From Yuukianura sp. NJ FZ-2021 (lineage: Eukaryota): a stretch of 64,000 nt of DNA. Both the position numbers and the translations under genes were made by a program. Positions within the stretch are counted from its first letter, which is position 1, and every line of letters starts with the position of its first letter. Positions 7,083 through 53,492 of the stretch are shown one piece after another. Where the stretch lies: contig CM102284.1 of the NCBI GenBank assembly GCA_046563655.1, forward strand, positions 9,176,001 to 9,240,000. Reading direction: 5' to 3'. The notes under the pieces were generated by a model. The model did no database searches. It saw only the letters and a program-made list of their open reading frames with translations, and was not told the DNA's origin.

Positions 7083-8525
7083 TCAGTTTTGGAAACTAAA
7101 GGCCAATGTTTCAAAATTTTGAGAATCCATGGTTAATTAAATGTTGTAAAATTAAATATAAAACAGTTTAAAATAAACTTTTAGGAAAACTAGATAAGTC
7201 GTCCGACAGCAGTCTTTGACGTTTATGTTAAATGCGATGCCAATCAATGCAAAGTGAAATATAAATTGTATTTAATTGTAATAGTTATTATATTTAATTA
7301 CTTGATTTAACATAATGTACTTTTATATTTTTATCAATTGCTGCTAATTTAGGATCAAATCTGGATTTGGTTTTTTTCATGGTTTGGTTGTATTTTTTAG
7401 ATTTTGAAACTATTTTTAAAACGCTTAACTTTTCTTAAGTTATTGAAAATCCGTCCAATGCATTTGGTAATTTTTTCTCTTCATACAAAAAATGGCGAAT
7501 TCCATAAACCTCCTGATATTGCTCAAATCATAAAATTATTAATGCTGACTTAATTATCTTATTTTAAAGGCCGGCCTGGAAGACTTCAATAGGAAATACA
7601 TATTTTAATAATTATATTATTAACATAAAAATGGTTTCTGATTAGTTTAGTTAGCCATAGTTTCTGAATTGTTGATTAATTGTTATTTACTGAAAGTAGT
7701 ATGAAGATGGGTATTTATTGTAATTAATAAAAACTATTTATGTAATTATACCATACAACGAAAGAAACAAGAAGTTCAATACGTCATAATATCGTCATTT
7801 TTTGTTAAAAATTTGACAATGCAAAAATTTTGCACGGATCGTATGCAAAAAGGATTTTCTGCAACTTGAGTCAAGCGATGATGGAGTTATAGAAGTGGCT
7901 GCAGGTTTTAATTTTTTAAAACTTTCTAGATGCAAAATCCTGCTTTTGTTCTGAAAGTCTTTGAGGAGTGTTTCACGTATAGTTGTTTTCAATTATTGAC
8001 TTAAATTAAAACTAATTAATTGATTAGCAGAAGTGTTAACTAGTTTGCTAAAAGTAAAAAATTTGTACTAACTATTGAAATAAAGATAGAATTTTTCATT
8101 GTCACAATCAGACGCCAAATAAAAATTAATTTATATCATGCTACTTGGTATTCAAGCAGAAAGCTGCAGAACAAAAATTAAAAAGTTTTTAAATGGCGTG
8201 AAGATGTAACAACAGAAAAAACAAAACTTTTTTTTTTCAGAAAATTCCATTATTCAGCAAAAAATTGAACGATAAAATGAAAATAAAACGCGTTCCTCAT
8301 GTTTTCAATTTCTTATGTGTTGCGTTATGCGTTGATATAAATTTCAAAAACGATGAATTCCATGAATTTTGTGAAAAACTTTTTAAAAATTTGCTTTTTT
8401 GTAAATTTTTTTCACTAAAGGATGTGAAATGACGTTCTGCAACTTCAACTGGTCGATGAAGTTGCAGAAATTGCAAACGACTTCAAATTTTTAGAAATTT
8501 CTGAAATGGGAATTTTGCTTATGTT

Positions 8526-13113: not shown

Positions 13114-15577
13114 TTAGATAGCAATCAAATCCGGTAGACTGTTTGCCGCCTTTCTTTTGAGTATTTTTGGAACCGGTTTCTTCTTTATGTAAACAAACTT
13201 GTGATACTTGTTCAATTTTTCCAAACTTGCATCTCCAAACTGCATCTAAATCAAGAAAAATTCGATTTAGAACAAACCTAAGTTTAAAAACTTTGAAAAA
13301 GTTAAAAATTGCGTACCGAATTTTCGCCAAAAACGAGTTTCTCGAGCGGTTGCATCTGAAGAAGAGCGAGATCCACTGCACACGGTTGGATACAGTACGC
13401 TCCACTGAAAACCAGCACTTTCAAATCTGAAAAACAACAAAAATTAAGCTTTTTTGAAACAGTTGAGGTCAAAGGTCAAGTAAACTTTAAACTTTATTAT
13501 GATTCTTACTGGTCATGCTACGGATAGAGTCCACGGCCGAGGCTAAGATGAATTCCAGTGCATTATTCTTCTTGTCCGCCGGAACGAGTGGATTCTCCGA
13601 GTATCTTGCCACCATTCTAGCATGTACTTCTGGATACTCCAGTCCAGTCAACACTGGACTCAAATCCAACTGCAGCAGAGCATTGGTTGATCGAAATCCC
13701 CGGCAGATTTCCAAATGCTCCAGTTGACGAACATTTCCAAAGAGAGTTGCCAGTGCTTCTGGATAAATTTCAACCACTTTGAGCTTTCTGAGTGCTGGAT
13801 AAATGAGCGTCAGGTTCTTGATGACTTCTTCGCCGGAGTCAGTTCTAGGCCGAGCGATGGGCAACGGAAGAGCCATTTTGAGAACAACTTCCGTCACACA
13901 CGGAGCCGTGAACTTGCCAACACTCATTCCTTGCAGAACTCCACGCGAAGTGATCATTCTTTTCAAATACGGAAATGGAATTTGAATTGGCGTGATGGAC
14001 AAGTTGTCTCCTTGCGGACTCCGCTCGACGTTATGGACAGTGTCAAGATGAAGCGTTTCGAGTAAAGTCATTTCTGGAAAGGAAATGAGTTCCAGTGGCC
14101 GAGTATTGTTGATTCGGATGTCCATGTGGGTCAATCTCGAAGCATAGACTTTGAGAACTTCCAGTAAAACGGTTCCATGCTGCGTAAGGTAAACTTCACC
14201 AAATGTGATGGAAGTTAAGTTCGGTAGATCTTTGTGGCTTCGGATAATGTAGATCAAATCTTTTTCTTCGAGACATCGGATACTTATGGATTCCAGTTTT
14301 ACTAAACGTCCAATCCCGACCATAAAATTTTGAACGATGGAGCTCCGCAGAATGTCCAGTTCCAGGCGTTTCACTTGAGGAACGGAATTGAAAACTGGCA
14401 ACATAATTTCAAAATTTTAAAAATTACTTTCAAAAAGAAAATTCAAAATTTTGACCTCACCATCAGCAAGGTACTGTTGACAATGCATATTGAGCGGTCG
14501 CATGTCAATTCGTCGGGCCGCCGAAGGTAGAAACCATCCCGTAAAATTCAGCGTCTCCACACTGAAAAACAATCAGAATCAGAATCAAAAAATCAGAAAC
14601 AATCAAACAAAGAAAATTTTGAAATTTTGAAACTCAAATTTTGGAATCCATGAAAATTTTTGAAAACGTTTTGCTAACCTGTTGACAACCAGTGGCGGTG
14701 GAGCACTGAGCGTTGCATGGTCAGGCATCTGTTGCCCCGCCGGCAGTTTTGGAAATTCAATATTGACCAGCATCAATTTCTTCACATTTGGCAAGTATTT
14801 CAGCATTTTGAACACATCGGGAAACGAAATTTTGGCAGCATTATGCCAAGCATGAATTTGGATTTGTTTGATGTTTTGTCCAAATGTGCTGAAACTCCGT
14901 TCTATTGCTGCCGTAAACCGTGTTTGGAATTTGAACTTGTTGAAAGGAAAGTTGACCGATTTTTTGAGCAGAGGCTTCAGCGCAAGCGTACGATCCTTGT
15001 CCAGGACAACAGTGTCATGGCGACTGCGCAAATACGTGTTTGACACTTCGTTCCACACTTTGCTCACGAGGCGACATTTCATCAGAGTGTCTGCATCCAA
15101 ATACTTCATGACTTCTTTCATCACCTAAAAACAACCAAAAAACGCAAAATTTATGAAACTTGAAATAAAATTTTGAAAAGTCTTACAACATCCACATTCA
15201 TTGCATTTGGCCCGCTGTTGACAGTCGTCACATTCTGCGATGAATCTTCTCCAGCGTCATTTTCCAATCGCTTCAAATTCATCGCTTCATTTCGAATTTT
15301 CATACGCCGAGTTTGAACTCCTGGAGGACTTGCGAATTTCCGCTTCTTCGCTGCAGTTTCATGCGGCGTATCAACTCCAGCCACCGTCAGCGCAACTGCA
15401 AAAAGCAAAATCAAAATTCAGTTTTTCGAAAAATTTCTTATTTTCAAATTTTTTTTTATAAACTTGACCTTCATCCATAGTAGACTCAAATCCAGACACT
15501 TCGGGGCTAACAATCCGCAGTCCGGGAGACACACTCCGCGGAATAACCTTCGACTTGCGACGTCTCGCGCGTGGCAT
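13114..15577 (-). CDS. F-box / leucine-rich-repeat protein (7 exons)
   Basis: Exons 15577-15469, 15395-15187, 15124-14679, 14561-14461, 14394-13510, 13426-13317, 13245-13114 join in phase. F-box-like VMKEVMKYLDADTLMKCRLVSKVWNEVS, then repeated LxxLxL motifs (LPNVKKLML, LPNLTSITF, LLETLHL, LRKLKV, LEHLEI). Basic NLS-like N-terminus. Confidence 0.8.
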
Positions 15578-36425: not shown

Positions 36426-39400
36426 TATATTTTTTATACAATATCACTCGTTGTCTCTCAAGCAATGTCACAATGTTAGCCCTAAAGCCTCACAACTTCA
36501 CAACACTTTCTCTCTTATTTTGGAACTTTACGGTATCCCAGCTACAAAAGTGTTTTCCCCAGCCTGTAATTTAGTGAAAAATGGACACTAGGGTGACGGG
36601 GGGAGCCTTAATTCTAAAAACTGTTCAAAATTGGTCAAACAATGAAACTGAAAATGAAAAGAGCAGAGCATAAAGTTCTCATGAGGATTCCCCGCACAAA
36701 GCCCGACATCTGCCATTTCCATTTGTGCAAATCCTCAACCCTGCACAACTTCAACGTCCATGCACTAAAAAACTATGACTTACTTCATATGCCAACTCCA
36801 TTCAACTGCAAAAAAACGAAATATTCCAACTCTTTTCCCGCACTGCACAAAGATCAAAAACCAAACACCGCCATACTTTAAACTTCCTTCATCCTTCAAA
36901 ACCTAACATTTTCATCAATAAAATCTAAGTTTTTCTCCAGGCGTTCACTTTTTACCCGAATTTTAAACCAGTTTCGAAAAGTTAACTTTAGTAAAAAAAA
37001 AAATATTGATTCACCATGTTCCGGTAAACCAAAAATTGGTAAATGTGCCTACAACACGCAAAACGACTCCGAATTCATGCAGCCTCTGACCGCTACGGTG
37101 GTGATAACTAAAGATAACACTGACTTAACTGCATCAAAGAATTTAAAAGTCTTAAAATAGTCCCAAAAAGAAAATAAATGGAACCGAAACTATTCAATCT
37201 TTGTATTTTTTTTCCAAATTGGCTCATCATCCCCAAATTTCTCACTTCCGAAAAACTGCAGACAAATACAAGCCAAAACTTCAAAAATTTCAAAATTACC
37301 AAAACCTAATCATAAAAACAAAAAAAAATCGAATCGAAAATGCTTGAATCAGAAATGGAGCTAGTGAGTGTATGACGATGAGTCAAAACTAAAATGTCAG
37401 GAAGGAACTAGCACGTGACTCATATTTATATCCTACACAATTTTACTTTTCAAAACACAAACCAACACACGCACTTTGCCCAATTTAACTCAAAAATCCC
37501 CCCAAAATACAAAAATCGGCTCATTTCGAAACACTAGGTACTATCCCAAAAAATCTAGTTTTTTCAGAACCATTTCTGAAAAAGCAAAATTCTAAAACTA
37601 TTTTAATCGATTGTCACCATTGTTTCAATCCTTTTTTCATTTCCATTTTCTCATTCCTTCTCGTTCAGACTTCTATTTTCAAAATCGAAACTTTCAAGGT
37701 ACGAAACATTAATTAAAGTGCATTGATTCGAATTTGAAAAGTGTATAGTCATAAACTCCACCACCAAACAGCATCTCTCTCAATCTAAAGAGGCTTCCCG
37801 TCAATGTCACTCACCTGCCTTTGTCTTCCAATGCCCAAGGCCATTCATTATCCAATCTCTAACATCCCTACACTTAACATTACCACCATCCCAGCCTAAA
37901 AAATACTCAGAACTACTTCTACATAACTCCTCTCCTCAAAAAGTATCTCTTCAAAAAATAAGCATCTCACTACACCATTTCCTTTGAAATTTGGAATCTA
38001 CGACTCAAAAACATAAAAACAAGTCTCTTCCAAATAAAAGTGCTAGACTGACTAATTAATTAATAAGCAATCAATGCTCTCTAACCCACAAATCACCTCT
38101 TCACTCTATCAAATCCACCAACTTCAAAGCAATTCCAACTTCTGCCTTTTGCTAAACCACTCTCCAAAGTACTACAAAGGAAGAGCCAAAACTTGCCAAA
38201 AACTTTTATGCACAAGAGCACAACTTTTGCACAACGGGACTAGGAAAAGGAAAATTAGGTCACAAGGCTTCACACAACCTGCAAAAACAGCCTTCCCAAT
38301 ATGCATACCAATCCAAAATTCACAACCACTCTCCCCGTCAAGCACTGGAACATTTTCAAATCCAAAATTCCAAAAAAACATTCAAAAGTTCGAAGAGAAA
38401 AAACAACAAAAATTTAGTTGAATTTGATTTTTTTCTAAAACTAAACCGAATAATTCTGTGAAAAATGGAAAATAAGGATTTAGAATTCCAAAACTCTCGA
38501 AAAAACAATTTTCCGAAAACAAAAATGCTGAAATTTTTACTCACATATTTTCCAAATTTTTTCTTTGTGGTTCCGCTGCTTAAGTACTAACCATTTTGCT
38601 AAATTTCGACAAAAGTTGGCATCTAAATTCGCATTCGCAGTAACTACACGCAAAAAAGTTTGGACTCAAGATAAAAACTAGCCCATTACCTACTTTGTTT
38701 CGCCCATAAAAATCATGCCAAAAAACAAAATTTCGTTTTTTTTCCAACATAAGGCATCTCCTACGGCGTTTCTTTTGGAAATGTAATTTAAGCAGGTAGG
38801 TAGAAAAGTACAAGAAGGAAGAAGAAGAAGATCAGAAGAGGAATGAGGCCAGTCCTTATTATTCCAAGGAAGTTTCAACCAAAAAGAGGCAACGCCGATC
38901 GAAACAGCACGATTACCGTAATTTCCCAAATACTAGGCCCCACATTTTCCAAAAATTTGTCCCTCAACCTTCAAATCTGCACTAAAAAACAACAATTCTT
39001 TCCGTAAATTAACATCAAGGGTCAAAAGTTCAAATTGTCTAGCACAGCGAATTTTGAACAGAACAAAATTGGACCTTCTTCCTCCAGAATCTTACAAAAA
39101 ATACCGAAAAAAGCGGAGTAAGAGCAAGAAAATGAAAGGAAATTGGACAATAGTTGTGGAAAGAGAAAGGAGAAAGAAGCTAAACCCATTTCTAAAAATT
39201 CAGTTCACGGAGCGAGAAATGGGATCTCCCTTCCCAAAAATTCATCTTTCACGTCACCCTCTCTGCTCGCAGTTTCCCCAGTCGCCCTCTCCTTTCTCCT
39301 ATTCATTCAATTAATCAAGGCGGAGACTCTGCTCCTGCTCCCATTTTACCAACAACTTTAAAAAAAAAAGACTTAAAAAAAACTTTTTTTAAACAAAGTG

Positions 39401-39475
39401 GGGACAGAAGCACTGCTCAGCAGCTTTCTCCATCCCTGTTTTAGCACAAAATCAAAATCGAGCAACTTCTACTAC

Positions 39476-40272
39476 TAATGTTCGTCTAAAAACGCAAGAC
39501 CCTTTATTTATTTTCACAATTTAATATTTTTGAGTTTTTCGGGGCGGGTTGGGCTGCGCTTATGCAACACCATGTATACACCAGCGACTGATTGGGTTAT
39601 TCAGGAACTTACTATCACCGAACGTCGTCATTTGTCAAAATTCATCTTCGTTTCTTTGTCACCTTTTTCTGTTACCGTTTTCTGGTCCATTCTTTTCATT
39701 TTAGTTAATTAATTCGACTTTTAGCTGTGTTAATTACTAAAATGCCTAAAGCGAAGAGCAAAGAGGAGAAAGCATTGACCGACTTGCATAACAATTATGT
39801 ATTAAAGACAACTTAGATAAAGTTGGCATGCAACAAAGTAAAATATTTCAGAAGTGAAATTTTCACTGAAATGAAGCGCAAACAAAATGCAATGCAAAAT
39901 CACACCAAGTGCAAGAAACGATAACAATTTTTGCACCTTTTTTGCAGTTTTGTGCAGTATTTTTACTTTTTTATTGTGAAATAAAATGAAAAGTTTTTTT
40001 TATTCCATTTTATTTTATTGCACTTTATTGCATTAATTGCATTTATTTCACTTTCTTGCAATTTTTTTCACCTGCAATGGAAAAAAAAACAAGCGTAGTG
40101 CAAAACTTCCAACTTTGAGTCCGATATTAGTTTTGATGAAGATTCGGATGATTAGTGGTTACAAATGATATGTCGCACGTTGTATTCAACCTTGCGGTAA
40201 CGTATGGCAACAAATCCAAAATCAGCGAAAATTTGCGTAAACAAAGGGTCTTGCGTTTTTAGACGAACATTA
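39476..40272. mobile_element. Non-autonomous TIR DNA transposon (~800 bp)
   Basis: 35-bp terminal inverted repeats (39476-39510 and 40238-40272) TAATGTTCGTCTAAAAACGCAAGACCCTTT[A/G]TTTA with 1 mismatch. TSD is either TA or the imperfect 5-bp ACTAC/ACTAT. Confidence 0.85.
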
Positions 40273-43200
40273 ACTATACTGACTCAATTGTCGCTTAAAC
40301 TTGCAAATACAATAGAAAGGGTAACGAACGCTCACAACAACTAAATTCAAAAAATAAAAAAATCAAAAAACAACGCTAAAAAACTAAGAAAAGAAAAGCA
40401 ATGGCAAAAAAGCATCGCAACTTGTGAGACGCTGTTCGAAATTTTTGGTTTTCAAATTGTCAAAAAAAAAATCTCCCGTTCCAAACTCCCACAAATCACA
40501 AATTTTCAAATTTAGCCACAAATTCTTTTAGTGAAAGGTCATATCCAAATCCAAAGTTTAATGGAATTTGCTCACATTGGAACTCCGAATTCTTGAACCT
40601 CAAAAATTGCAGGAATGATTACGTCCATTTTTTTTTTGCAAAATGCAAAACTTCTCCTACTCAATCTTTCATTCTCCTCCTCTTTATTCAGACAGTGGTT
40701 TTTTGGGATACAAAAGTAGCACGCACAGAATTTCGTATCCTTATCCTCCCACCTTCAGATGCAAAAGACTCTACGTCTCTCATTGTCATGCATTCTCAGC
40801 CTATAACAGTAACAAACGGACCAAAAAACTTAAATCATCTTTCAAAATTACAATTTTTAAAACCCTGCCATAGGAAATTTCAGTTTAGATTTGAAATTGG
40901 ACGACTTGAAAAAACATCCCGCTCATACTTCTGCATTCAGCGTGTTTCTAAAACCATGGAGCCCTCAATTTCAAAATCTTCCTTCAAAAACTTTTTTGAA
41001 AACTTTGAAACCTTTAACCCACTCGTGCAGCATCACTTCTTATTTCAGAGCACACAAAAGGCGAACAGACGCAAAAGGTCCTTGAATTTGAGGTTTCAGT
41101 CTAAATTTGACTGAAAAATGCCTCCAGCCAAATAAAAAAAAATCTCTTCCCAAAAATGTTTTGGGAAGCTCAACGTTGAATTAGATCTTCAACGCTCAAC
41201 ATTTTTTGAAGCAGTTGGAACCTGACCAACAAAAACTAAAGTCAACGCGTAGCCAGCACATGAACAAAAAAAAAGTTTCGAAAAGCGAAGTAAATACACA
41301 AAAAAAAAAGTTTTGAAAAGTGGTAAGTAATAGCTTATCACTCCCAAAATGGAAAAAAAAAGTTTTCACTAAAAACCGCAGAATTCCGAAGCCGGGCAAA
41401 GCAAAAGCTCCCATTTTGTGAAATTTTGAAATCAAGTATGGTTTATGGTTTTTCTAAAATTGTGAAAAGGGGCTGCTAAAAGCCTTGAAGGATCGGTCGG
41501 AGGTTTTAATTTAGGAAAACGGTTCACAAAATTTCAAAAAAAAAAAAGTTTTTCGTAAGTAAAAAGAGCGCATGAGAAGTTTTTCATCCACCATTCTACA
41601 CGGCATAAAAAAAACTGAAAATCCATTTCCTTCCAAAGTACAAAAAAAATCCTCCTCCCTCCATCATCCTGTAAAGAATGCCACCCAAAATCCAATTGTT
41701 TCAAAAGGTGTCACGGACTAAAGTTATTGCAAAACAAAGATTTACTTTTTCAGCACAAAATCTGAAAATCTACAAGAAAGGAAGCGTCAGTGTCACCAAA
41801 AACAAAAAAACGTCAAAATATAAAAAAAAGCTAAAGCATCAAACAATTCGAACTAAACAGATCAAAACAAATCAAACGAAACTAACAAAACTTGCCATCC
41901 AGCGGACAACTTGTGCAAAAACTGTCCAGCAGAATGATTCTCAAAACTAAGAATTCTCACATACAAAAACCGAAAAACCCGAATTCGGGTTTACGATTTA
42001 TCGAACTATCGGAAACAACTAGACAGTGGGTTGATTTGCTCCGAGTTTTGCTTTTCAACATACACTTCGAAACATCGGTTTTCAAAAGAAAGCCAAGAAA
42101 TGCAGACATTTCAGCCAAAAATCAAGTTGTACGCAAAGAAGAAGTTAATAAGGTTTATTACTAAAAAAGCAAAGCGAGATTTAAACAGAAAGCATTTTGC
42201 ATTACAAAATAAATAGTATGTTGACGTACCTTGTTGTTGTTGATGAATCAGCCAACCATTGATTAGGATTTTACTTGCTAAGTCCAAGGGATTAACAAAA
42301 ACGGAAATCTTCTCACTAAAAAACGAAAAGAAAATGAAAAAAATGGAATTGAACACTTCGGTAGTAGAGATTTGAAACATGAGAAACTTCCGTTGTTCCT
42401 GATTTAAAACTTAGTTTTCAAGATGAGTTCTTTTGAAATGGCGGATTGTCATTACCACTACAAAACTGCTCCAGAACAAGGCCAACTTTTGAGTTTAACG
42501 TTTAAAGTTGATGTCAGTTCTAATCAGTCTGTCGCTGCTTGGGAATTGCGAAATAATTCTAAGTGTTCGTGAATGAGATGATGATGACGAGGAGGTTTCG
42601 GACCACTGAGGAACCAAAATGGATGACGGACGACTAACTGTATGCGTGAGGACGAAGATGTTGAGTTAGATAACACACACGCCTGTATAAGGAATGTGTA
42701 GGTCACTCAAAACTGTCACAAATCTAAGGTTGATTGTTGATTAATCGTCACAGGTTACTTGATTTTTAACACCAACTATCAATTGTCTCCGGATTTGGTT
42801 TCTCCAGTTCTTGCCGCGAGCCGCGGTGATACTTCGATACTTGCCATTCATTTGAAACTTGTTGAAAAACGACGAACTACGAACTAGCGTCAATTTGAGG
42901 TCTGTCTGTCATTCATAATCACAACGATTACAGAACTTCCAGAAGATGCTGATGCTGCCGCAGTGTGAGGTTGAGGTTGTGAATCTCCAATTCAGACGCG
43001 CAGATACAAAAATCCGGTAGGATCACTGAACGCTCCTCTTTTATTCTCCTGTGAATAACAAATAACGAGATATTTCCCAATAATTAGCTCAATAAATTTG
43101 AAGGGATTGTCAAATGCAATTGTGAACAACTGTTATTTGATGCATGCAGAAGATCGTTAATAACCATTACCCGTGTCGTCGTCCTCTGTGCCTTTTCTGT

Positions 43201-44168
43201 AAGAATCTCCCGAATCCGGGTAGTTGCGGACTCAAACTTCCCAGCCCAAAGTTCGACTCCAATCGATGCGCAGAGGAAAGACAAAATATAGTTTTAGACC
43301 TCTGTGAGGAGCCGAAGCGGGCGACGGCACTTTCCTTGTTCAGTAAGCGTGACTTTGACTTGGTGTGTAGGTGAATGTCCTTTAGCAAAGAGAGGTGGTT
43401 GTGAAAATTCTGTGTTCAAAGTACTTAAATAGTTGGAGATACTTTGACCCTTTGTGACCTGCGGACGAAACGTATGGAGGGACCCTTATCAGGGCTGGTT
43501 ACTTGACATGACCACGTCACTTAGCTCGTCAAATACTGACTTGTGAGAGCTGGCTCAGATGATAAACAGAAGAGGTGTGAAGATTAACGACACTTTCCAA
43601 AATCAGCTGATATGACACAACAACCTCACTCACCAAAGGCTACTGCCCGACTGAAGTGAAGAAATCATCTTCACTTTGCAAAATGATAAAAAAAAGGAAA
43701 ATGCAAGGGGGAGAGACAAAAAAAAATAACAAAGAACTTGTCATATTTTTCTTGTTTGGACTATGTGTTAGTACTGTGCAAAATATAGGACAAGTAAAAC
43801 GCAAAAAATTCGAATCTGTAAATGACAAATCCACAAACACTTGGTCACTCAAACGGTTACTTACATTACCCTTTCACCCGCTTGAAGTCACCGCACCGTT
43901 GCCATCTTTTTCTTATTTATTGCAAAAAATATCATTTAATTTCTGTTTTTTAGTTAATTTGACTTTAATTGCCATACTTTAGTTAATTCTACTTTAATTG
44001 CCATACTTTAGTTACTTTTACTTTAATTTGCTTTAATTCACACACCTAAAATACCTAGCCAAAAAAAACTAAAGATTTGTAGATAGTATGTATCTCACTG
44101 TTTTCTACTTTGTATTCTGTATGTAATATCATCAATTCAATTTTCCCTTAATGATACACCATTATCTC

Positions 44169-45439
44169 CAGAGGCCGGCAAAGAAAGATAGATCTTTTTT
44201 AAAACTTTCCTGTTTTTAAAAACTCTTAAAAACCTTAAAATCTTATAAATTCTTTTTTGCAATAAAAATTTTTTGGAACCTTTTGGAAACTTTTTCATGC
44301 CAATTCAACGAAAACCCCAATTTTCTTAACTAAAATCAAAATTTTCCTTTAATATGTGTGTGTTTAGCTTATTATTTATCTTAAAATTTGGAATTTAGTT
44401 GATTAGAAAGAGTGATTTTCCTGCTAAACTTTTAACTTTTTGGAATTTGGAATTTAGTTGATTAGAAAGAGTGATTTTCCTACTAAACTTTTAACTTTTT
44501 GGAATTTGGAATTTAGTTGATTAGAAAGAGTGATTTTCCTACTAAACTTTTAACTTTTTGGAATTTGGAATTTAGTTGATTAGAAAGAGTGATTTTCCTA
44601 CTAAACTTTTAACTTTTTGGAATTTGGAATTTAGTTGATTAGAAAGAGTGATTTTCCTACTTTAACTTTTTGGAATTTGGAATTTAGTTGATTAGAAAGA
44701 GTGATTTTCCTACTAAACTTTTAACTTTTTGGAATTTGGAATTTAGTTGATTAGAAAGAGTGATTTTCCTACTAAACTTTTAACTTTTTGGAATTTGGAA
44801 TTTAGTTGATTAGAAAGAGTGATTTTCCTACTAAACTTTTAACTTTTTGGAATTTGAAATTTAGTTGATTAGAAAGAGTGATTTTCCTACTAAACTTTTA
44901 ACTTTTTGGAATTTGAAATTTAGTTGATTAGAAAGAGTGATTTTCCTACTAAACTTTTAACTTTTTGGAATTTGAAATTTAGTTGATTAGAAAGAGTGAT
45001 TTTCCTACTAAACTTTTAACTTTTTGGAATTTGAAATTTAGTTGATTAGAAAGAGTGATTTTCCTACTAAACTTTTAACTTTTTGGAATTTGAAATTTAG
45101 TTGATTAGAGAGAGTGATTTTCCTACTAAACTTTTAACTTTTTGGAATTTGAAATTTTATGTACTTGCCACTGAAATGTGGCCACCCATTGTAGCTACAA
45201 AATACGGCTAGAGTGACTACACTGTGCAGCTACAATAACGGTCGTTAATCCTTACCTTGACCTACTAACTGACGGCTAATTTAAGTACTCTTTTTGAGCT
45301 TACTTTATTTACCAAAAGAGGTTAAATAAGGCTTATTTTGACTTTTAAGAGAATTTTTTTTGAGCTTTTTTGAACCATTCTTAAGAAATTATTAAGATCT
45401 TAAAACAACATTTTTTGGATCTTTCTTATCCGGCCTATG
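44169..45439. mobile_element. Non-autonomous TIR element with a 5-bp TSD and an internal satellite
   Basis: Left end CAGAGGCCGGCAAAGAAAGAT; right end reverse-complemented CATAGGCCGGATAAGAAAGAT. Flanked by ATCTC at both 44164-44168 and 45440-45444. Confidence 0.8.
44384..45158. repeat. 59-bp tandem repeat, ~13 copies
   Basis: Unit GGAATTTG[G/A]AATTTAGTTGATTAGAAAGAGTGATTTTCCTACTAAACTTTTAACTTTTT. One copy carries a short deletion. Confidence 0.95.
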
Positions 45440-46356
45440 ATCTCATAACTATTGCTCTAAATGAAATGTAGTACGTTATCCAAATTGGGTTAGACTAACT
45501 AGTATGTTTTGCTTGATTTGATTATTAACGGCAATAAAGATTATGATTATTTTCTCCAAACCTTAGGATGTTTACATTTCAGCGATAATTGTAATAAAAT
45601 GTAAGCAGAATTAGGCAACACCGCAAAGACTGTGGAAGGTAGTGAAGCTGAAGTAGCTTGTTGTCAGACCCAGAGCAATACCCGGCTAACAGTTAAATTA
45701 TTTTGTGAATAACTGAGACTTGCTTGCAATAACGTTAGAAAAGACGTTGCTTCATTAACAGTTTTTATTAATTAATTGATTCATATAAGTATTTGATACA
45801 AATGTTAATTAAAGATAATTATTCCATATGTGTAAAAAATTGTTCTAGTAGAAAGATTTGTATGGTTTCAGTGGATGTTGATCTCAATTTTTACAGAGAC
45901 GAAGCGCGGGAAACTTGTTTTGTTTCAAAATATTTGAATTTCAAAACCAGAGTGACTCGAAAGAAAACCTGCGAACAAGACGAGAGAGGCCGAAAATTGC
46001 ATTGTCATTCATTTCGTAGCATTGGAATTTGGTTGTTCACCGTATTCACTGATTGACATTCTCATCTTCTCTGGCGTGATTTTTTGGTAAGTGGACTGAT
46101 AAAGGTCAAGTCCGGGTCAACACACCATCACTTCAGAAGCTCTTGTAACAAACTGTAAAACTTTCATACACAGATAACCTGTGACAGGTTCATGGTGTTG
46201 GGGTAGAAAAGGATGAAGCTATAACTGTACTAAACTCAGACTCAATGAAACTAAATCGTTAAAATCATACTATTTTGATTTTTAGAAGTGCGAACGCGTT
46301 AAAGGAAGTAGCTGAAACGGAAGGATAAACGTTTATTTCACCGGACGTAACCTGTC

Positions 46357-49300
46357 ATGACTGCGGTTCTTACATCAGCTGGTAAGTAATCGTTGTCTCT
46401 TTTGTAATCGTTGTCAAAAGCCGAGAAAGAGTAGTGCCACCATGAAGTGCATGTCATGTTTCGAATCAGAGTGTTAGTATTAAGTTTAGTTGTAGGATAT
46501 ACAGAGGGAACTGGAATGAATAACGTATTAGGTAGAACGAGTTTCAGAAATCAATCCAATACAACTTGTATTACAAGTGTAAAAAAAGGTACCAGGAAAG
46601 GAACATGTCGGTTTCATTATCCCATCATCCTTAAGTTGGTGTCAGTAGATGAATGTACTGGAAGCGTTGTTTAGTTGCTAAGACTTGAAAGGTGACTGTT
46701 TTCACTGATCGCGTTCTCTGTTATGTTGTAGGTTCCTTGTAAATACGAGCAGTCGAGGCGACAGTACTATCAAGTCACTATAAGTAGCTTCCACCGTCAT
46801 TCATCTACTGAACCTTCCATTTCTTGTCCCTTCGTACTTAACACTACAGTATGGGCGGAGCAAATACGAAGTTGGACGATGATCTCTGGGCAGGGTCTGG
46901 AGCCATGTCACGTTACAAGTCAGACTCAGACTCAGTTCCTCCAAAGAAGCCAAGTTCAGTTCCACCAAACAAAGGAGAAATCCGACCAAGCGAAAAGCCT
47001 TCTACAGATGATAGCAATGACCCCGATGGGGAAATTGCTGACCGGGATCCATATGATCCTAAAACTGCCGGTCCTATTTTTCCTAACGGAGAAATCAATT
47101 GGGACTGTCCATGTTTGGGAGGTGCTGCTCATGGGCCTTGTGGTACTGAATTTCGAGATGCCTTCTCATGCTTCCATCACAGGTCATTTTTCATAAAAAT
47201 TGTAAAGTTAAAAGCCATCAATAGTGAAACGTCTTTCCAAAACATCTGATGTGTGTATACAGCAAAGAGGAAATCAAGGGAAGCGACTGTTTTCCCCACT
47301 TTCGGGAAATGAGCTCCTGTTTCGCCCAATATCCAGAACTTTATGGAGCTAAGGAAGTTGACGACGATGACGAGGATGATGGAGACGACGACGGAGAGAA
47401 GACGAAGAAAGATGAAGTTGAATTTGATCAAGAGGAACTTGATCTTATAAACGAAGAAGATGGTTCCGGTGACCGAAGGAAGGAAACGAAGGTCAAGAAA
47501 GACGATGATGAAAACAAAGAGAAGGCCAAGGCTGCTGAGGAAGTTCACGGCGAACCCAAAAAATCTAGAAAGTCAACTGGAGATGTGAAGCAGAAGAATT
47601 CTCTTCCCCTTCCAGGGACACAAGCTGTCCTGTGAGTTGTCAGTTACACTCCCGGAACAATGGAATGACTGCATTTGTGTAGCAATAGTTCAAGAGAGAT
47701 AGTAGACTTCATTTTGGTATAAAATTCTGTTGTTTGTTCCTAAGTTCCATTTATAAGGTAACGCACACGTACCTTTACAATGTCCAGGTTCTACCAGTAC
47801 TTAAGTAGAAGTGAATGCAGGAATAAAATACTCAGAATTTAAAAAAAATCCTTTTTTTTAGTTGTACTCTGTACTATTTGAAAAAGGGAACATGACATGC
47901 GTTTCATGGTGGGAGTTGAGCATTGAGGTACCTACTAAGAAATGTTTTACAATTTACGTAAATTTTACGTGAATTTACGTTTTTACGACTCACAATTTTT
48001 GAATTTTTGTTTTACAGCTGGGATTATTTCCCTCCTGGATGAAAACCAGCACAATGTCAAGGCTTTTGCTCTCACCAAGCTCAATGGAATCGTTAACGAG
48101 TTTTGGCCAGAAATCGCTGATGTTATTAGCAAAATGTAAGCTAATTAGTTAATCATCGGATTGTTTATGATTGATTAGAATAATTTTGATTTTGTTTTTA
48201 GTGAAATGATCTTTGAAGATCCGAGTTTCCCAGATCACAATCGTCAACTTGCAGCACTTTTAGCAAGTAAAGTTTACTACCACCTTGGAGAGTTTCCTGA
48301 TTCTCTGCAATATGCTCTTGGAGCTGGACCACTGTTTGACTTGGCACAAAGAAACGAGTATGTGGAGACAATACTTGCCAAATGTCTGGACACTTACATC
48401 AAAAGTTGCATCGCAGCTTGGCCAAACACTCCAACAGCTGAGCAAGTTGATCCTCGTCTCAAGAGCATTGTGGATCGAATGTTTGACCAGTGCTTGCAAG
48501 ACAAACAGTTCAAACAAGGATTAGGAATTGCTCTTGAAACACGTCGGATGGACATGTAAGCAGCAGTCACGAGCTGAATCATAAACAGTTTTCAATTTCG
48601 AACTTTGAAGTTCAAAATTTTGGAATTTTGAAGTCTAAAAATTTTTGAAATGGTTCATCTTTACTTTATCTTTAGGTTTCGACGGTCCATTGGTGAAGGA
48701 GAACACCAAGCTGAAATGCTGTCTTATGCCTTCCGTGTTGCAATGACGCTGATTGGTCAACGGGAATTTAGAGACGAAATCTTGCGTAACCTCGTCGGAC
48801 TTTACTCTGGACTTCCAAGTCCTGACTATGTCAACATGTAAAAGCCAACAGACGATTCAATAATATGTAAAGTTTATGTTTTTAGCAAGTTTTATGAAAA
48901 ACGTTGTTCACTTTGTAGGTGTCAGTGCTTGATTTTCTTGGACAATGCAGAAGAGGCTGGAAACGTTTTGAAGAAGCTGTCGAGTGGAGACGAGAGTGGA
49001 AAATTGATGGCATATCAAATTGCTTTTGACTTGTACGAGAGTGCTACACAAGCATTTATTGGACGAGTACTGGCCCATCTCAGAATCATTGCAGCTCCTT
49101 TCGTCCAGTCTTCTACGCCGGGATCTGAAAATGGTGCAGAAGCTCCAAGAAATGGCGAAGAATCTCAAGATCAAGAGATGAGAGAGGAGTTGGTAGAGGC
49201 GAGACCATCCAGAAGCGATACGCAAGTCACTGATGAAGGAAAGAAACACTATGAACAATTGTTCCAAATTCTGAGTGGAGAGGTGAGAATTATAAAACAT

Positions 49301-52300
49301 CAACTTTCAAAATCACGATTTCTCAACGTTTTTTGGCAATTTAAACTGAAAGTTGTCATTTTTTTTAGACCACACTGGCCCTTCATCTCCAATTTTTGAT
49401 CCGATCCAATAAATCGGACTTGGCAATTCTGAAACAAACGAAAGATGCTGTTCGAGTTACAATTTGTCACACGTCAACTGTCATTGCAAACGCTTTTATG
49501 CACTCTGGCACAACTTCGGATCAGTTCTTACGTGAAAATTTGGATTGGCTGTCACGAGCAACGAATTGGGCCAAATTCACTGCTACAGCAAGTCTCGGAG
49601 TGATTCACCGTGGACATGAAAAGGAAGCCATGAATTTGATGAATACTTATTTGCCACGTGAGGGTGGAGCCACCAGTGGCTACTCAGAAGGTGGAGCCCT
49701 CTATGCCCTTGGACTCATTCACGCCAACCATGGAACTGCCATTACCAATTACCTCCTGAGTCAACTGCGTGATTCAAACAATGAAATGATTAAACATGGA
49801 GGATGTCTGGGACTGGGATTGGCAAGTATGGGAAGCAAGAAGACGGAAGTTTACGAAGTACTCAAAAGTACTTTGTATCATGACGATGCTGTTACTGGAG
49901 AAGCTGCTGGAATTAGTATGGGGTTGGTCATGCTGGGCTCGATGGACCAGAAAGCAATTGAGGATATGGTGGCTTATGCACAGGAGACGCAACACGAAAA
50001 AATATTGCGCGGACTTGCACTTGGAATTTCGCTGTTGGTGTTTGGACGACTGGAAACTGCTGATGTTCTTATTGAACGACTTTTGAAGGACAAGGTATTG
50101 GTGAAAAATCAAATTTTTTGTTGTTTTTTTTTTCAAGAAAAAAAAATTTCAAAATTGATTTTTTTTCTTTTGAAGGATGCACTTCTGCGACGTGCTGGTG
50201 TTCTGTCGGTCGCAATGGCATATTGTGGAACTGCTGCCAATTCGGCTATTCAAAAATTATTGAAAGTCGCTGTATCAGATACGAATGACGACGTTCGTCG
50301 AGCTGCCGTGATTGGTCTAGGATTTCTTCTTTTCCGCACTCCCGAACAATGCCCGAGCGTCGTCTCCTTATTGGCTGAAAGCTATAATCCGCATGTTCGA
50401 TACGGAGCAGCGATGGCTATCGGTATTGCTTGTGCTGGAACTGGAAGCAAGGTTAGATACTCGAAAAAGTGGAATTGTCGCCTTTTTCGAAATTTTTTGA
50501 AAATGGTTTATGATTTTTTTTTTGTAGGAAGCAATTGCTCTGATTGAACCCTTGACCCAAGATCCTGTCAACTACGTTCGTCAAGGAGCTTTGATGGCCT
50601 CTGCCATGGTTTGCATCCAACAAACGGAAGTTCTCTGTCCAAAGGTCAAGGACTTCAGAGCCCTCTACGCCAAAGTGATTAACGACAAGCATGACGACGT
50701 TATGGCCAAGTTTGGAGCAATTTTAGCCCAAGGAATCATTGACGGAGGTGGTCGAAATGTCACGGTGACGCTGAGTTCCAGAACCGGCCATGTTTGGCTG
50801 CAGGGAGCTGTTGGCATGTTGCTGTTTACGCACTACTGGTATTGGTTTCCAATGTCACTCTGTCTCGGACTCGCCTTTGCTCCTTCTACCATCATTGCAG
50901 TCAACAAAAATCTTGAGGTTTGCCAAAACATTTTAATTGCTAAGCGCGTAGCTGCTTTTTCGCGAAATCGAAGTGCAATCAGGTTTGTGATGCAGGATTT
51001 CATGATTCACACTGGATTCGCATGAAGCGAATCTACTCTTTTCCTTCTATTGTGGTCATAAACCACTTCCTCTGCTGGACTAGTCAGGGTGCTCTGCGTT
51101 GTTTGGTTAGGCGAGGGACGCTTCTGAGAATTTTTCGTCACTCTCCCTCTCCCCCTCTTCTGTTCGTGTGAATTTTGAAGAGGTCGTACTTAAGCCGAAG
51201 TGGGGAAAAGGGTGAAAAACAGTTCTAAACATACGGCAGGTTTCAGAGTTTGCTCGTTTTGTTACAATTTGCAACTCTAACTTTCATCTACCATTTCAAT
51301 TTTGAATTTCAGCTTGAAATTTTTAAAGCTACCCGGATAAGTTTGTTCGAAATTTTGCTAGAATTTCAAAGTTTAGGCTGAAACTATTTCGGAAATGGAA
51401 GCTACAGCTAAGGATCAGCTGAGAGACGCTTGTTCAAAGTGTCCAAGTCCAAAAGTTAGAAAAAATCAGGCATCGATTCAGTGCTGTCAGTGTAAAAACT
51501 CGTACTTCAAGATGTGTCCACTTCTGAAATCACAAAACCAACATTATCAGAGCAAAAACCAAAAGAACGGAACTTGGCACTGTCTGACATGTCGCTCTGA
51601 CCGTCCAAAAACTTTCTGTTCGATGTGCTTAGACGACCGGAACGTTAAACTGTTGAGCTGTAGCGGCTGTGAGTACAAGTATCATGCTGACTGCGTCAAC
51701 CGAGTTGACCTGATCGTTAAGGTCAAGGGAGCTGTTGACGGGTCAAGAGATTGGAACTGTTCGAAATGTGAACCATCGTCAGCATCACCAGTGAAACATC
51801 CAGTGGCTTCTTTTGAAAAATTTCTGAGCTTGAAGCAAGATGGGCTTAAAATTTTGCATTTGAATATCAACTCACTTTTGAACAAATTTGGAAAAGTGGA
51901 GGAACTTTTACTTAAAAATCGAGTTGATGTTTTTGGAATTTCGGAAACGCAGTTAGTCAGCAGTGATGCTCGGGAAAGTTTTGAGGCAGAAGGTTACCAA
52001 CTAATTAGAAGAGATCGTCCAAGTATTCATGATACTCGTAAGAAAAGTCGTGGCGGTGGATTAGCATTGTACGTTCATAAGGATTATACTGCCAAAGTTG
52101 TTGAAGAAGACGAGCAGTACTATAGTTGTGACCTCATCGAATATTTGGTGGTGAAATTAAGCTGTGCAGCAACAGGAGTTTCATTTTCAGTGATTTTAGT
52201 TTATAGTCCGAAACCAGGAAATCCGAAACTGAAAGACAGGCTGGCAGAGTTAGTTGTTGAAGCTAAGAGATACAAACCCCGAAATGAAGTATTTATCCTT

Positions 52301-53492
52301 GGAGATACAAATATTGATTTGCTATCGGAGTCCAAAGTGGCAGTCAATCTGAAGGAGATGCTGGCGGAGAGGGAATTTTTGCCGCTGGTGTTGCAACCGA
52401 CTCGAGTGGACAGAAATGGCGGAAAGTGTATTGACTTGATTGCTACGGATGCAGACAGAAAAGGAATCGGTGCTAAGGGGGTCGTCAATTTGAATTGGGC
52501 TGATCATTACATTGTGTATGGATTCCGGAAAGCGTCGACGCTGGAGTTGAAAGCAGGATAGAACGGCAGGAGAGCAGAGACAGCGATGTGGGCTGTCGAA
52601 TTTGTGTTTGTTTGTGTTTTCTTTGTCCAAAAGTGCTGCGAGTGAGAGTCAAACTTTCTGGAAAAATCAAAGTGTAGGTTGATTCTGTCAAAATTCTTAA
52701 TACTTTTATAGAATTTGGATTTAAACAGTTTGAGGTTGACGAAACGCGAGGATAATTCACAGGGAATTTTAAATTTTGACAATTTTTGGAGAATTTGTTG
52801 GTAATTTGTGTTTTCGTTGTTTTTGCAGATGCCGGTGTTGCAGTTCAAGTCAAATGCTAAGCCGTCGACATTCGCTTATCCTCCACCATTGGAGGAAAAG
52901 AAGAAAGAAGAGAAGGAACGCGTAGCAACAGCGATTTTGTCCGTGACGGCAAAGGCCAAGCGTCGTGAAGAAATCAAAGGCAAGAAGGAGGAGGAAGCGA
53001 TGGAAGTGGAAGAAGAACCACCGAAACCAGTAGAGGAAGAAAAGAAAGAAGTCAAAAAGGAAGAACCGAACTTTGAGATGTTGTCAAATCCAGCTCGAGT
53101 GATGAAGCAGCAGGTAAACATACTTTGGAAATGAAAATCTAAAAAATTTTGAAAAGCTTTATTTGAAAATGTTTGAAAAGTTTACTTACTGTGTATTTTT
53201 GAAATTGTAGGTCCGTTATATCGAGTTTTGCGATGAGAAGAAGCGATGGCGTCCGGTGAAGGAAGGAACAACCGGTGGAATCCTTGTCGTGAGAGACTAC
53301 GCTCCCGATGAACCTGTCACTCTTGTCCAAGCCGTTGCAGGTACTTTTTGAATTTAACTTAATTGAGTAACTTAATTAAAGTGTGCTAAAACTTAATAAT
53401 TTGTGTGTTTTGCAGCTCACGGACCACGAAGGGAAGAGGAAGAAGAAGAGCCAGGTCCACCAGAGCCGTTTGAGTACAACGATGAAGATTAA
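46357..53492 (+). CDS. Rpn2: 26S proteasome non-ATPase regulatory subunit 1 (Rpn2/PSMD1), 11 coding exons
   Basis: Exons 46357-46381, 48018-48135, 48202-48555, 48676-48837, 48919-49282, 49369-50094, 50176-50451, 50528-50917, 52829-53113, 53211-53340, 53416-53492. Spliced product: [17 protein letters not shown]...[17 protein letters not shown]...PC repeats...[11 protein letters not shown], all hallmark PSMD1 sequence. Confidence 0.96.
46851..47635 (+). CDS. CHCHD4: Mitochondrial IMS import oxidoreductase MIA40/CHCHD4, nested in an Rpn2 intron (2 exons)
   Basis: Exons 46851-47182 and 47263-47635. [18 protein letters not shown] (CPC redox motif), twin CX9C ([22 protein letters not shown]), YPELY and an acidic tail. 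Confidence 0.93.
51395..52561 (+). CDS. Tandem PHD finger + APE-like (EEP family) endonuclease, non-LTR-retrotransposon derived, no RT; nested in Rpn2 intron 50918-52828
   Basis: Uninterrupted 388-aa ORF. PHD1 CxxC..CxxC..(K)xC..WxCxxC (His replaced); PHD2 canonical C4HC3. EEP motifs in order: [49 protein letters not shown]. Stop follows shortly after the DH motif. Confidence 0.85.
   Translation: MEATAKDQLRDACSKCPSPKVRKNQASIQCCQCKNSYFKMCPLLKSQNQHYQSKNQKNGTWHCLTCRSDRPKTFCSMCLDDRNVKLLSCSGCEYKYHADCVNRVDLIVKVKGAVDGSRDWNCSKCEPSSASPVKHPVASFEKFLSLKQDGLKILHLNINSLLNKFGKVEELLLKNRVDVFGISETQLVSSDARESFEAEGYQLIRRDRPSIHDTRKKSRGGGLALYVHKDYTAKVVEEDEQYYSCDLIEYLVVKLSCAATGVSFSVILVYSPKPGNPKLKDRLAELVVEAKRYKPRNEVFILGDTNIDLLSESKVAVNLKEMLAEREFLPLVLQPTRVDRNGGKCIDLIATDADRKGIGAKGVVNLNWADHYIVYGFRKASTLELKAG

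Follow-up and report, generated by a model that had tools for sequence, protein, structure and literature searches.

The complete gene for the mitochondrial import receptor MIA40/CHCHD4 lies inside the first coding intron of the proteasome subunit gene Rpn2/PSMD1, on the same strand as its host, in a 64,000-nucleotide (nt) stretch of DNA from Yuukianura sp. NJ FZ-2021 (GenBank assembly GCA_046563655.1, contig CM102284.1, forward strand, 9,176,001 to 9,240,000; hereafter the window). We think it likely that Rpn2 and MIA40 form a two-gene transcription unit conserved in springtails, in which Rpn2 exon 1 has two splice partners and a hairpin is placed at the proximal acceptor. The alternative use of exon 1 for MIA40 is supported by conservation and by the messages of a relative; in the window species we infer it from conservation, because the RNA run there covers the Rpn2 form only. 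Metagenome contigs were scanned with MIA40 exon 1, giving 17 loci (L001-L017) in which Rpn2 exons were then sought by tblastn. The main parts of the window locus are as follows (uORF, upstream open reading frame).

46286..46381, plus strand: exon with the Rpn2 ATG at 46357 (25 coding nt), proposed to be shared and to provide the uORF start on the MIA40 mRNA; RNA-covered at 46294-46380, with homologues in L001, L002 and L005
46382..48017, plus strand: Rpn2 intron 1, containing the entire MIA40 gene; skipped in the RNA contig, with GT..AG ends
46851..47182, plus strand: MIA40/CHCHD4 coding exon 1 (CPC motif and first CX9C, motifs checked); match to human MIA40, PDB 2k3j, E 8.7e-18
47183..47262, plus strand: MIA40 intron, 80 nt, phase 2; GT after the same codon in the window and L001-L004
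47263..47635, plus strand: MIA40 coding exon 2 (second CX9C, motif checked; acidic tail; TGA at 47633-47635); tblastn matches to L001, L003 and L005
48018..48135, plus strand: Rpn2 exon 2; both junctions present in the RNA contig
48202..48555, plus strand: Rpn2 exon 3 (RPN2_N, Pfam E 8e-42); RNA junction 48135>48202

The Rpn2 ATG occupies 46357-46359, the exon ends at 46381 in front of a GTAAGT starting at 46382, and the intron of 1,636 nt closes with the AG at 48016-48017. The identity of the nested gene follows from the CPC motif and the twin CX9C (CHCH) core found in the two exon translations. Searched singly against Pfam, the window MIA40 exons gave no match; the contiguous orthologue L005 matched CHCH with E 2.7e-6 (27.8 bits, cut-off 27.2). 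The host exons carry the domains of Rpn2/PSMD1 (RPN2_N, E 8.1e-42; PC_rep, E 9.7e-31) and are 73-84% identical to the best proteins among the matches listed, of which the named ones are mostly 26S proteasome non-ATPase regulatory subunit 1 or regulatory particle non-ATPase 2. The nesting on one strand had been proposed in a first-pass annotation of this DNA, and all of its coordinates for it stood when 45400-48700 was read again, as did its other landmarks (GGTAAGT 46086-46092; AG at 46284-46285, 46730-46731 and 46848-46849; AATAAA 47822-47827). The limits that it implied for the MIA40 intron were one base off, which is corrected in the list above.

The RNA of the window species, or of one nearly the same, came from a single metatranscriptome run (7% of sampled words, share 0.07) that was compared with positions 45000-51300. 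One spliced contig of 350 nt, with 4 mismatches to the window, covered 46294-46380, 48017-48135 and 48202-48345, skipping 1,636 nt and 66 nt with GT..AG ends, which corresponds to the junctions 46381>48018 and 48135>48202. Because this contig skips the 1,636 nt, the Rpn2 junction across the MIA40 gene, previously a prediction, is real in RNA. The contig begins 8 nt past the putative acceptor at 46285 and decides nothing about an exon further upstream. RNA pieces at 47359-47393 were rejected as cover of MIA40: they are low-complexity, acid-rich matches that come from other organisms and have loose ends.

The other junction, from the Rpn2 start exon into MIA40, was seen in a relative. L005, a contig of 1,068 nt, contains a complete MIA40 open reading frame (ORF) at 210-905. 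An intron interrupts MIA40 in 5/5 genomic sequences (the window and L001-L004, with GT after ...CA(C/T) (C/T)A(C/T) AG); it is missing from L005, which runs straight into exon 2, and L005 is therefore a spliced message. The homologue of the Rpn2 start exon is found in its leader at 112-136, and the only ATG of the leader is the one at 112. Positions 88-147 read, from stop to stop, VGEGDPNMTTYLTSAAEV, i.e., VGEGDPN-MTTYLTSA-AEV: the end of the 5' untranslated region (5'UTR) is followed by the Rpn2 start exon, no GT donor, three codons and a stop, which makes an 11-codon uORF. The Rpn2 protein P0005 (993 residues) comes from a contig of only 3,286 nt, which must for that reason be spliced, and begins VGEEDPNMTTYLTSAAGIISLL, i.e., VGEEDPN-MTTYLTSAAGIISLL. 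The two leaders, ...VGE(G/E)DPN-MTTYLTSA, differ by one residue over their common part.

L005 and P0005 together support the view that one or two sister species join the same leader and start exon both to the MIA40 leader and to Rpn2 exon 2. The first-pass suggestion of one unit with alternative splicing of Rpn2 exon 1 thus gains support in a relative from the L005 message and the P0005 N-terminus, and the Rpn2 ATG, which it had read as the start of a short uORF on the MIA40 mRNA, is seen in that role in L005. It is very unlikely that a mis-assembly would fall exactly on the Rpn2 exon-1 boundary and join just the two genes found nested in relatives, and a processed retrocopy as the source of L005 would equally record such an mRNA.

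Relationships were examined with a tree of Rpn2 exons 2-3 (23 rows). The window, three metagenome contigs, Folsomia candida, Orchesella dallaii and four further proteins formed one clade (support 100/99), separate from insects, Daphnia and chelicerates; within it L004 paired with Folsomia (100/99) and the window with L001 (95/92). The Rpn2 N-terminus MTxxLTSAAG is common to this springtail clade, and that of insects is MNITSAAG. Judged by sequence, the source of the window is a springtail-clade arthropod. In three of the four related genomic contigs, tblastn placed Rpn2 exons 2 and 3 after MIA40 on the same strand, at these positions:

L001: MIA40 at 1676-2473, Rpn2 from 2782
L002: MIA40 at 1663-2010, Rpn2 from 2504
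L004: MIA40 at 74-391, Rpn2 from 1112

The fourth, L003, stops 428 nt past the MIA40 stop and is too short to show Rpn2. Rpn2 exon 1 also lies upstream of MIA40 in L001 (1193-1217, then GTAAGT) and L002 (1124-1148, then GTAATT). Synteny in related species, which the first-pass annotation had named as a check, bears out the nesting; its recurrence in L001, L002 and L004 makes the arrangement more than chance and, from the layout kept in these contigs, the nesting is old within springtails. The 12 loci L006-L017, several of them short, lacked an Rpn2 exon at E <= 1e-3 and bear weakly on how far the arrangement extends. Among these, L008-L016 are MIA40 loci about 70% identical to the window core, from organisms other than the springtail set, with no intron at the springtail MIA40 intron site and no Rpn2 exon up to ~10 kb downstream.

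If exon 1 is spliced to MIA40 in the window, the receiving side would consist of two elements.

46697..46731, plus strand: candidate MIA40-specific proximal 3' splice site, with a CTGAT branch candidate, a pyrimidine tract and the AG at 46730-46731; conserved in L001, equivalent in L002
46732..46850, plus strand: putative MIA40 leader exon (5'UTR), 119 nt with 0 ATG; same pattern in L001, L002 and L005

The acceptor has counterparts in L001 (AG 1568-1569) and L002 (a strong site of its own, AG 1431-1432), and its context (CTGAT, a pyrimidine-rich tract, AG, then GT.CCTTGTAA) is nearly identical between the window and L001. Ranked by pyrimidine content among all AGs, it came 1/38 in the window and 1/10 in L002. 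Splicing 46381->46732 turns the Rpn2 ATG into an 11-codon uORF that ends at a TAA at 46740-46742, 108 nt ahead of the MIA40 ATG. Both the site and this consequence had been predicted and check out in the sequence, and the acceptor, the short uORF and the ATG-free leader are kept together in the window, L001 and L002. The dimensions in the four leaders compare as follows.

Window: uORF of 11 codons; uORF stop to MIA40 ATG, 108 nt; leader exon, 119 nt
L001: uORF of 11 codons; uORF stop to MIA40 ATG, 95 nt; leader exon, 106 nt
L002: uORF of 14 codons; uORF stop to MIA40 ATG, 45 nt; leader exon, 65 nt
L005: uORF of 11 codons; uORF stop to MIA40 ATG, 62 nt; leader exon, 73 nt

These leader exons hold 0 ATG in 363 nt versus 6.6 expected from the intron parts (18 in 986 nt; Poisson P ~0.001), and in the window 8 ATG fall within the 350 nt preceding the proximal acceptor versus none in the leader. 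The start codons of the uORF and of MIA40 both have a purine at -3, and the MIA40 ATG additionally has G at +4. The uORF residues past the junction vary (GSL, GPL, GLLAVH, AEV), and the uORF probably matters through its presence and shortness, not through its peptide. The stop of the uORF is in frame with the MIA40 ATG in 3/4 leaders (window 46740-46851, L001 1578-1676, L002 1450-1498; L005 not), with 111, 99 and 48 nt, respectively, from the first base of the stop to the ATG, and the window has a second TAA in the MIA40 frame at 46839-46841; this shared frame is probably a coincidence. A second MIA40 acceptor, proposed at 46848-46849 in the first-pass annotation, did not hold. The AG is present one base ahead of the ATG at 46851, but it has no counterpart in L001 or L002, and its use would run the Rpn2 ATG in frame into a 119-codon ORF across the MIA40 start.

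The non-coding DNA around the acceptor contains a conserved inverted repeat. Neutral DNA of the window and L001 is saturated (global identity 0.40-0.46), and the only exact runs of >=9 nt shared in non-coding DNA were 45998-46007, 46642-46655, 46724-46733 and 46798-46814; none occurred in the MIA40 intron, the MIA40 3' region or Rpn2 intron 2. The second and the last of these runs contain the arms of a hairpin.

46642..46655, plus strand: 5' arm of the predicted hairpin (intronic), from the highest-ranking inverted repeat (100% complementary over 14 nt); all 14 nt identical in L001
46798..46811, plus strand: 3' arm of the predicted hairpin (in the MIA40 leader exon), reverse complement of 46642-46655; inside a 17-nt exact match to L001
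L001: hairpin arms 1489-1508 and 1614-1633, 20 nt, 95% complementary
L002: hairpin arms 1373-1400 and 1443-1470, 28 nt, 82% complementary, in different letters

In 3/3 genomic loci (window, L001 and L002) the top inverted repeat brackets the proximal acceptor, as conserved complementary boxes do in the Drosophila Nmnat gene discussed below. The folding z-scores were -5.21 in the window, -3.73 in L001 and -5.74 in L002, with 0/200 shuffles as stable in each. We scanned the whole 2-kb loci so that the hairpin region was not picked after the fact; the hairpin had the best energy per base in each of them, and in sliding z-score scans it ranked 2/83 in the window, 1/73 in L001 and 1/36 in L002. The scans used 200 nt, since a 150-nt scan was too narrow for the hairpins of the window (178 nt) and L001 (146 nt) and missed both. 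The L005 leader also has a stretch resembling the 3' arm a few bases past the junction. By analogy with Nmnat, the most likely role of the hairpin is to mask the proximal acceptor, to which we give about an even chance.

A shared unit would further need a common promoter and a separate 3' end for MIA40, and candidates for both are present.

45998..46007, plus strand: 10-nt block TGCATTGTCA, candidate core-promoter or transcription-start element; invariant in the window, L001 (982-991) and L002 (776-785)
46008..46086, plus strand: putative non-coding exon 1a, with no ATG, its last G followed by GTAAGT
46087..46285, plus strand: putative 5'UTR intron, GT..AG, holding all 3 ATGs between the TGCATTGTCA block and the Rpn2 ATG
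47822..47827, plus strand: AATAAA, candidate MIA40 poly(A) signal inside the Rpn2 intron, 187 nt past the MIA40 stop

In 3/3 loci the TGCATTGTCA block lies in otherwise unalignable upstream DNA, about 200-350 nt before the Rpn2 ATG, and a single promoter for Rpn2 and MIA40 may be located there. The block occurs three times in the window (7814-7823 and 14478-14487 on the minus strand, 45998-46007 on the plus strand) versus 0.15 expected, and 0/100 shuffles reach three. As a general start-site motif it was rejected, the other two copies not being at obvious gene starts and one looking exonic; we keep it, from its conservation, as a locus-specific conserved block. The parts that flank the putative 5'UTR intron contain no ATG (0 and 0 versus 3 inside it), and at the aligned position L001 shows no donor matching 46087; an upstream non-coding exon is plausible. 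The ~8 kb upstream of the presumed shared promoter (38000-45900) contained no convincing ORF on either strand, and no divergent neighbour gene hinting at a bidirectional promoter was seen there; the last 2 kb of this part are 29% G+C. At the other end, 5/5 genomic sequences have an AATAAA downstream of the MIA40 coding end, before Rpn2 exon 2 or the end of the contig, and the intronic AATAAA would serve the 3' end of MIA40.

Later Rpn2 exons extend to at least 53339 (tblastn with the protein P0001). An ORF resembling a long interspersed nuclear element, with a PHD finger and an endonuclease/exonuclease/phosphatase domain (51377-52561, plus strand), sits on the same strand in an Rpn2 intron of ~1.8 kb, bounded by one exon match that ends at 50926 and another that starts at 52763.

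Several observations weigh against a conserved, hairpin-controlled unit. The low-depth RNA run gave the Rpn2 form alone, with cover of neither MIA40 nor the junction 46381>46732, and is uninformative on MIA40 expression. The shared leader is represented by a single contig (L005) and a single protein N-terminus (P0005) from metagenome data, and L005 stops 163 nt past the MIA40 stop with neither a poly(A) tail nor an AATAAA. The L001 acceptor ranks 6/32 by pyrimidine content. As for the hairpin, its arms are invariant between the window and L001, and the pair accordingly offers no compensatory changes; a three-way RNAalifold run on a MAFFT alignment mis-registered L002 and gave only -5.6 kcal/mol, which is uninformative; the most structured 200-nt stretch of the window scan is 47850-48049, at the distal acceptor (z -4.53, rank 1/83); and the 3' arm contains the initiator-like TCATTC/TCATCT, a possible internal start site. 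Palindromes of the TTTACG type occur in 47850-48049, a short way upstream of the acceptor of Rpn2 exon 2; L001 is unstructured over the corresponding part (z ~ -0.9), and the structure at the competing acceptor may be specific to the species.

The initiator-like motif leads to the reading of MIA40 as an ordinary nested gene with its own intronic promoter, whose transcription starts near TCATTC/TCATCT at 46798-46814 and for which transcripts with the exon-1 leader are a minor by-product. Nested genes usually have a promoter of their own, the 17-nt block conserved with L001 resembles the arthropod initiator, the ATG-free stretch 46732-46850 equally fits an unspliced 5'UTR, and the RNA of the window species does not decide between the two readings. 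However, the block is the exact reverse complement of the equally conserved intronic block, and because of this complementarity the conservation of 46798-46811 is explained without a promoter. Furthermore, 3/3 genomic loci retain the acceptor with a stop codon 3 to 6 codons further on, and L005, which was assembled and hence well covered, begins 111 nt before the Rpn2 ATG and passes through the initiator-like motif. We consider a promoter of its own unlikely for MIA40.

It is much harder to dismiss the exon sharing as an artefact, with L005 an assembly chimera or a rare read-through and nothing functional common to the two genes. L005 stands as a single contig, and metagenome-type assemblies such as its source can contain mis-joins, but it changes over precisely at the boundary of Rpn2 exon 1, relatives carry MIA40 in exactly that intron, and the two messages have no repeat in common that could cause a mis-join. 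Nor would an artefact account for an acceptor, a uORF stop, a leader free of ATG and a hairpin that are conserved in three other species, and we regard it as very improbable. An operon-like co-transcription, with a spliced leader joined in trans to the AG at 46848-46849, might be considered since trans-spliced genes typically have an acceptor immediately ahead of the start codon. Neither L001 nor L002 keeps that AG, L005 has a cis exon of Rpn2 as its leader instead of a spliced leader, and an Rfam search of the window, in which no family matched, gave no spliced-leader RNA; moreover, spliced-leader trans-splicing is not known from hexapods. The chance that it operates here seems to us close to nil.

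Under the preferred reading of one unit with two splice partners for exon 1, transcription would start upstream of Rpn2, probably near 46005, and the donor at 46381 would be joined to either the distal acceptor at 48017 or the proximal acceptor at 46731. The distal choice removes the whole MIA40 gene as an intron and yields the Rpn2 mRNA, and this is the junction seen in RNA. The proximal choice would yield a MIA40 mRNA ending at an intronic poly(A) site near the AATAAA at 47822; it would open with the 11-codon uORF from the Rpn2 ATG, and MIA40 would be translated by reinitiation or leaky scanning. Pairing of the intronic 5' arm with the 3' arm in the leader would mask the proximal site and let a part of the transcripts reach the distal acceptor, and this masking would set the ratio of MIA40 to Rpn2.

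The proteasome clears intermembrane-space proteins that fail to be imported, and its activity rises when import is defective, in the unfolded protein response activated by mistargeting of proteins (UPRam). One can speculate that the locus is linked to this crosstalk between proteasome and import. Springtail cells would then balance proteasome capacity against intermembrane-space import post-transcriptionally through the hairpin-gated choice, shifted by mitochondrial or proteotoxic stress, as a genomic form of UPRam crosstalk; a helicase, an RNA-binding protein or the elongation speed might act on the hairpin, and reinitiation after the uORF might depend on eIF2. We regard this extension as a long shot. 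In one whole hexapod lineage, an import receptor and a core proteasome subunit seem to be bound physically to a common promoter and a single splice decision. If MIA40 only hitch-hikes on a housekeeping promoter, the locus is still a clean conserved example of a nested gene losing its own promoter, and of a host start codon turned into a uORF. Should the ratio be regulated, the locus would be a simple system, testable in Folsomia candida, for the way in which the proportion of two essential proteins is set by RNA structure, intronic polyadenylation and reinitiation.

The architecture as such is already known from the cholinergic locus; the Rpn2-MIA40 pair and the conserved hairpin are new, and nothing on an Rpn2-MIA40 unit was found in the open-access PMC and bioRxiv literature. 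According to the available part of PMC7524744, the VAChT ORF exon lies in ChAT's first intron, exon 1 is common, and the choice is made by alternative splicing. As far as that part goes, the likeness covers a nested gene on the same strand in the first intron of its host (as in the window, L001, L002 and L004), one first exon spliced to either the nested ORF exon or host exon 2 (in the MIA40/Rpn2 case seen in a relative), and two unrelated proteins of one pathway theme from one promoter, which Rpn2 and MIA40 would share as well. Unlike in the cholinergic account, the shared springtail exon bears the host start codon and thereby places a short uORF on the nested mRNA, MIA40 has an internal intron, the pair consists of a proteasome subunit and a mitochondrial import receptor, a conserved hairpin encloses the alternative acceptor, and the unit has so far been seen in the springtail clade only. 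Another two-protein unit is that of Su(var)3-9 and eIF2-gamma in holometabolous insects, where two unrelated proteins arise by alternative splicing after common 5' exons. Those common exons are translated into both proteins, whereas in springtails the coding piece that is shared forms no part of MIA40.

The closest model for the hairpin is the stem in intron 4 of Drosophila Nmnat. In the available part of the report (Raker et al. 2009, PMC2724269), a terminal exon bearing a poly(A) site has its proximal acceptor enclosed by complementary boxes; in minigenes, breaking the stem reduced distal splicing and a compensatory stem rescued it, and conserved boxes were enriched in introns with both alternative acceptors and internal poly(A) signals. 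On this account the two systems agree in that the terminal exon reached by the proximal choice has a poly(A) site of its own (a candidate one in the springtail) and the distal choice lets the host gene go on. They differ in that the Nmnat outcomes are isoforms of one protein and those in springtails would be two different genes, and in that the stem effect was tested there by mutant and compensatory minigenes and is expected here by analogy.

Flies provide a different solution for the same gene. CG7950 is dMia40 (PMC7659709), and in the available part of Hayden and Bosco (2008, PMC2276209) it is the downstream ORF of a dicistronic transcript at 99D3, behind a conserved upstream ORF of 111 residues that is annotated as a tRNA-processing subunit and conserved to Neoptera; the terms Rpn2 and proteasome have 0 occurrences in PMC2276209. 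As in springtails, MIA40 is thus the downstream frame of a message that opens with the start codon of another gene, with no leader of its own; the difference, to the extent of that account, is that the upstream frame of the fly is a complete ORF of 111 residues and that of the springtail an 11-codon remnant of Rpn2. Because fly CG7950 sits behind this conserved upstream ORF, a MIA40 lacking its own leader may be a wider hexapod theme. The springtail arrangement parallels the dicistronic one of flies so described, and from these two cases MIA40 in hexapods rides on the promoters of other genes in at least two different ways.

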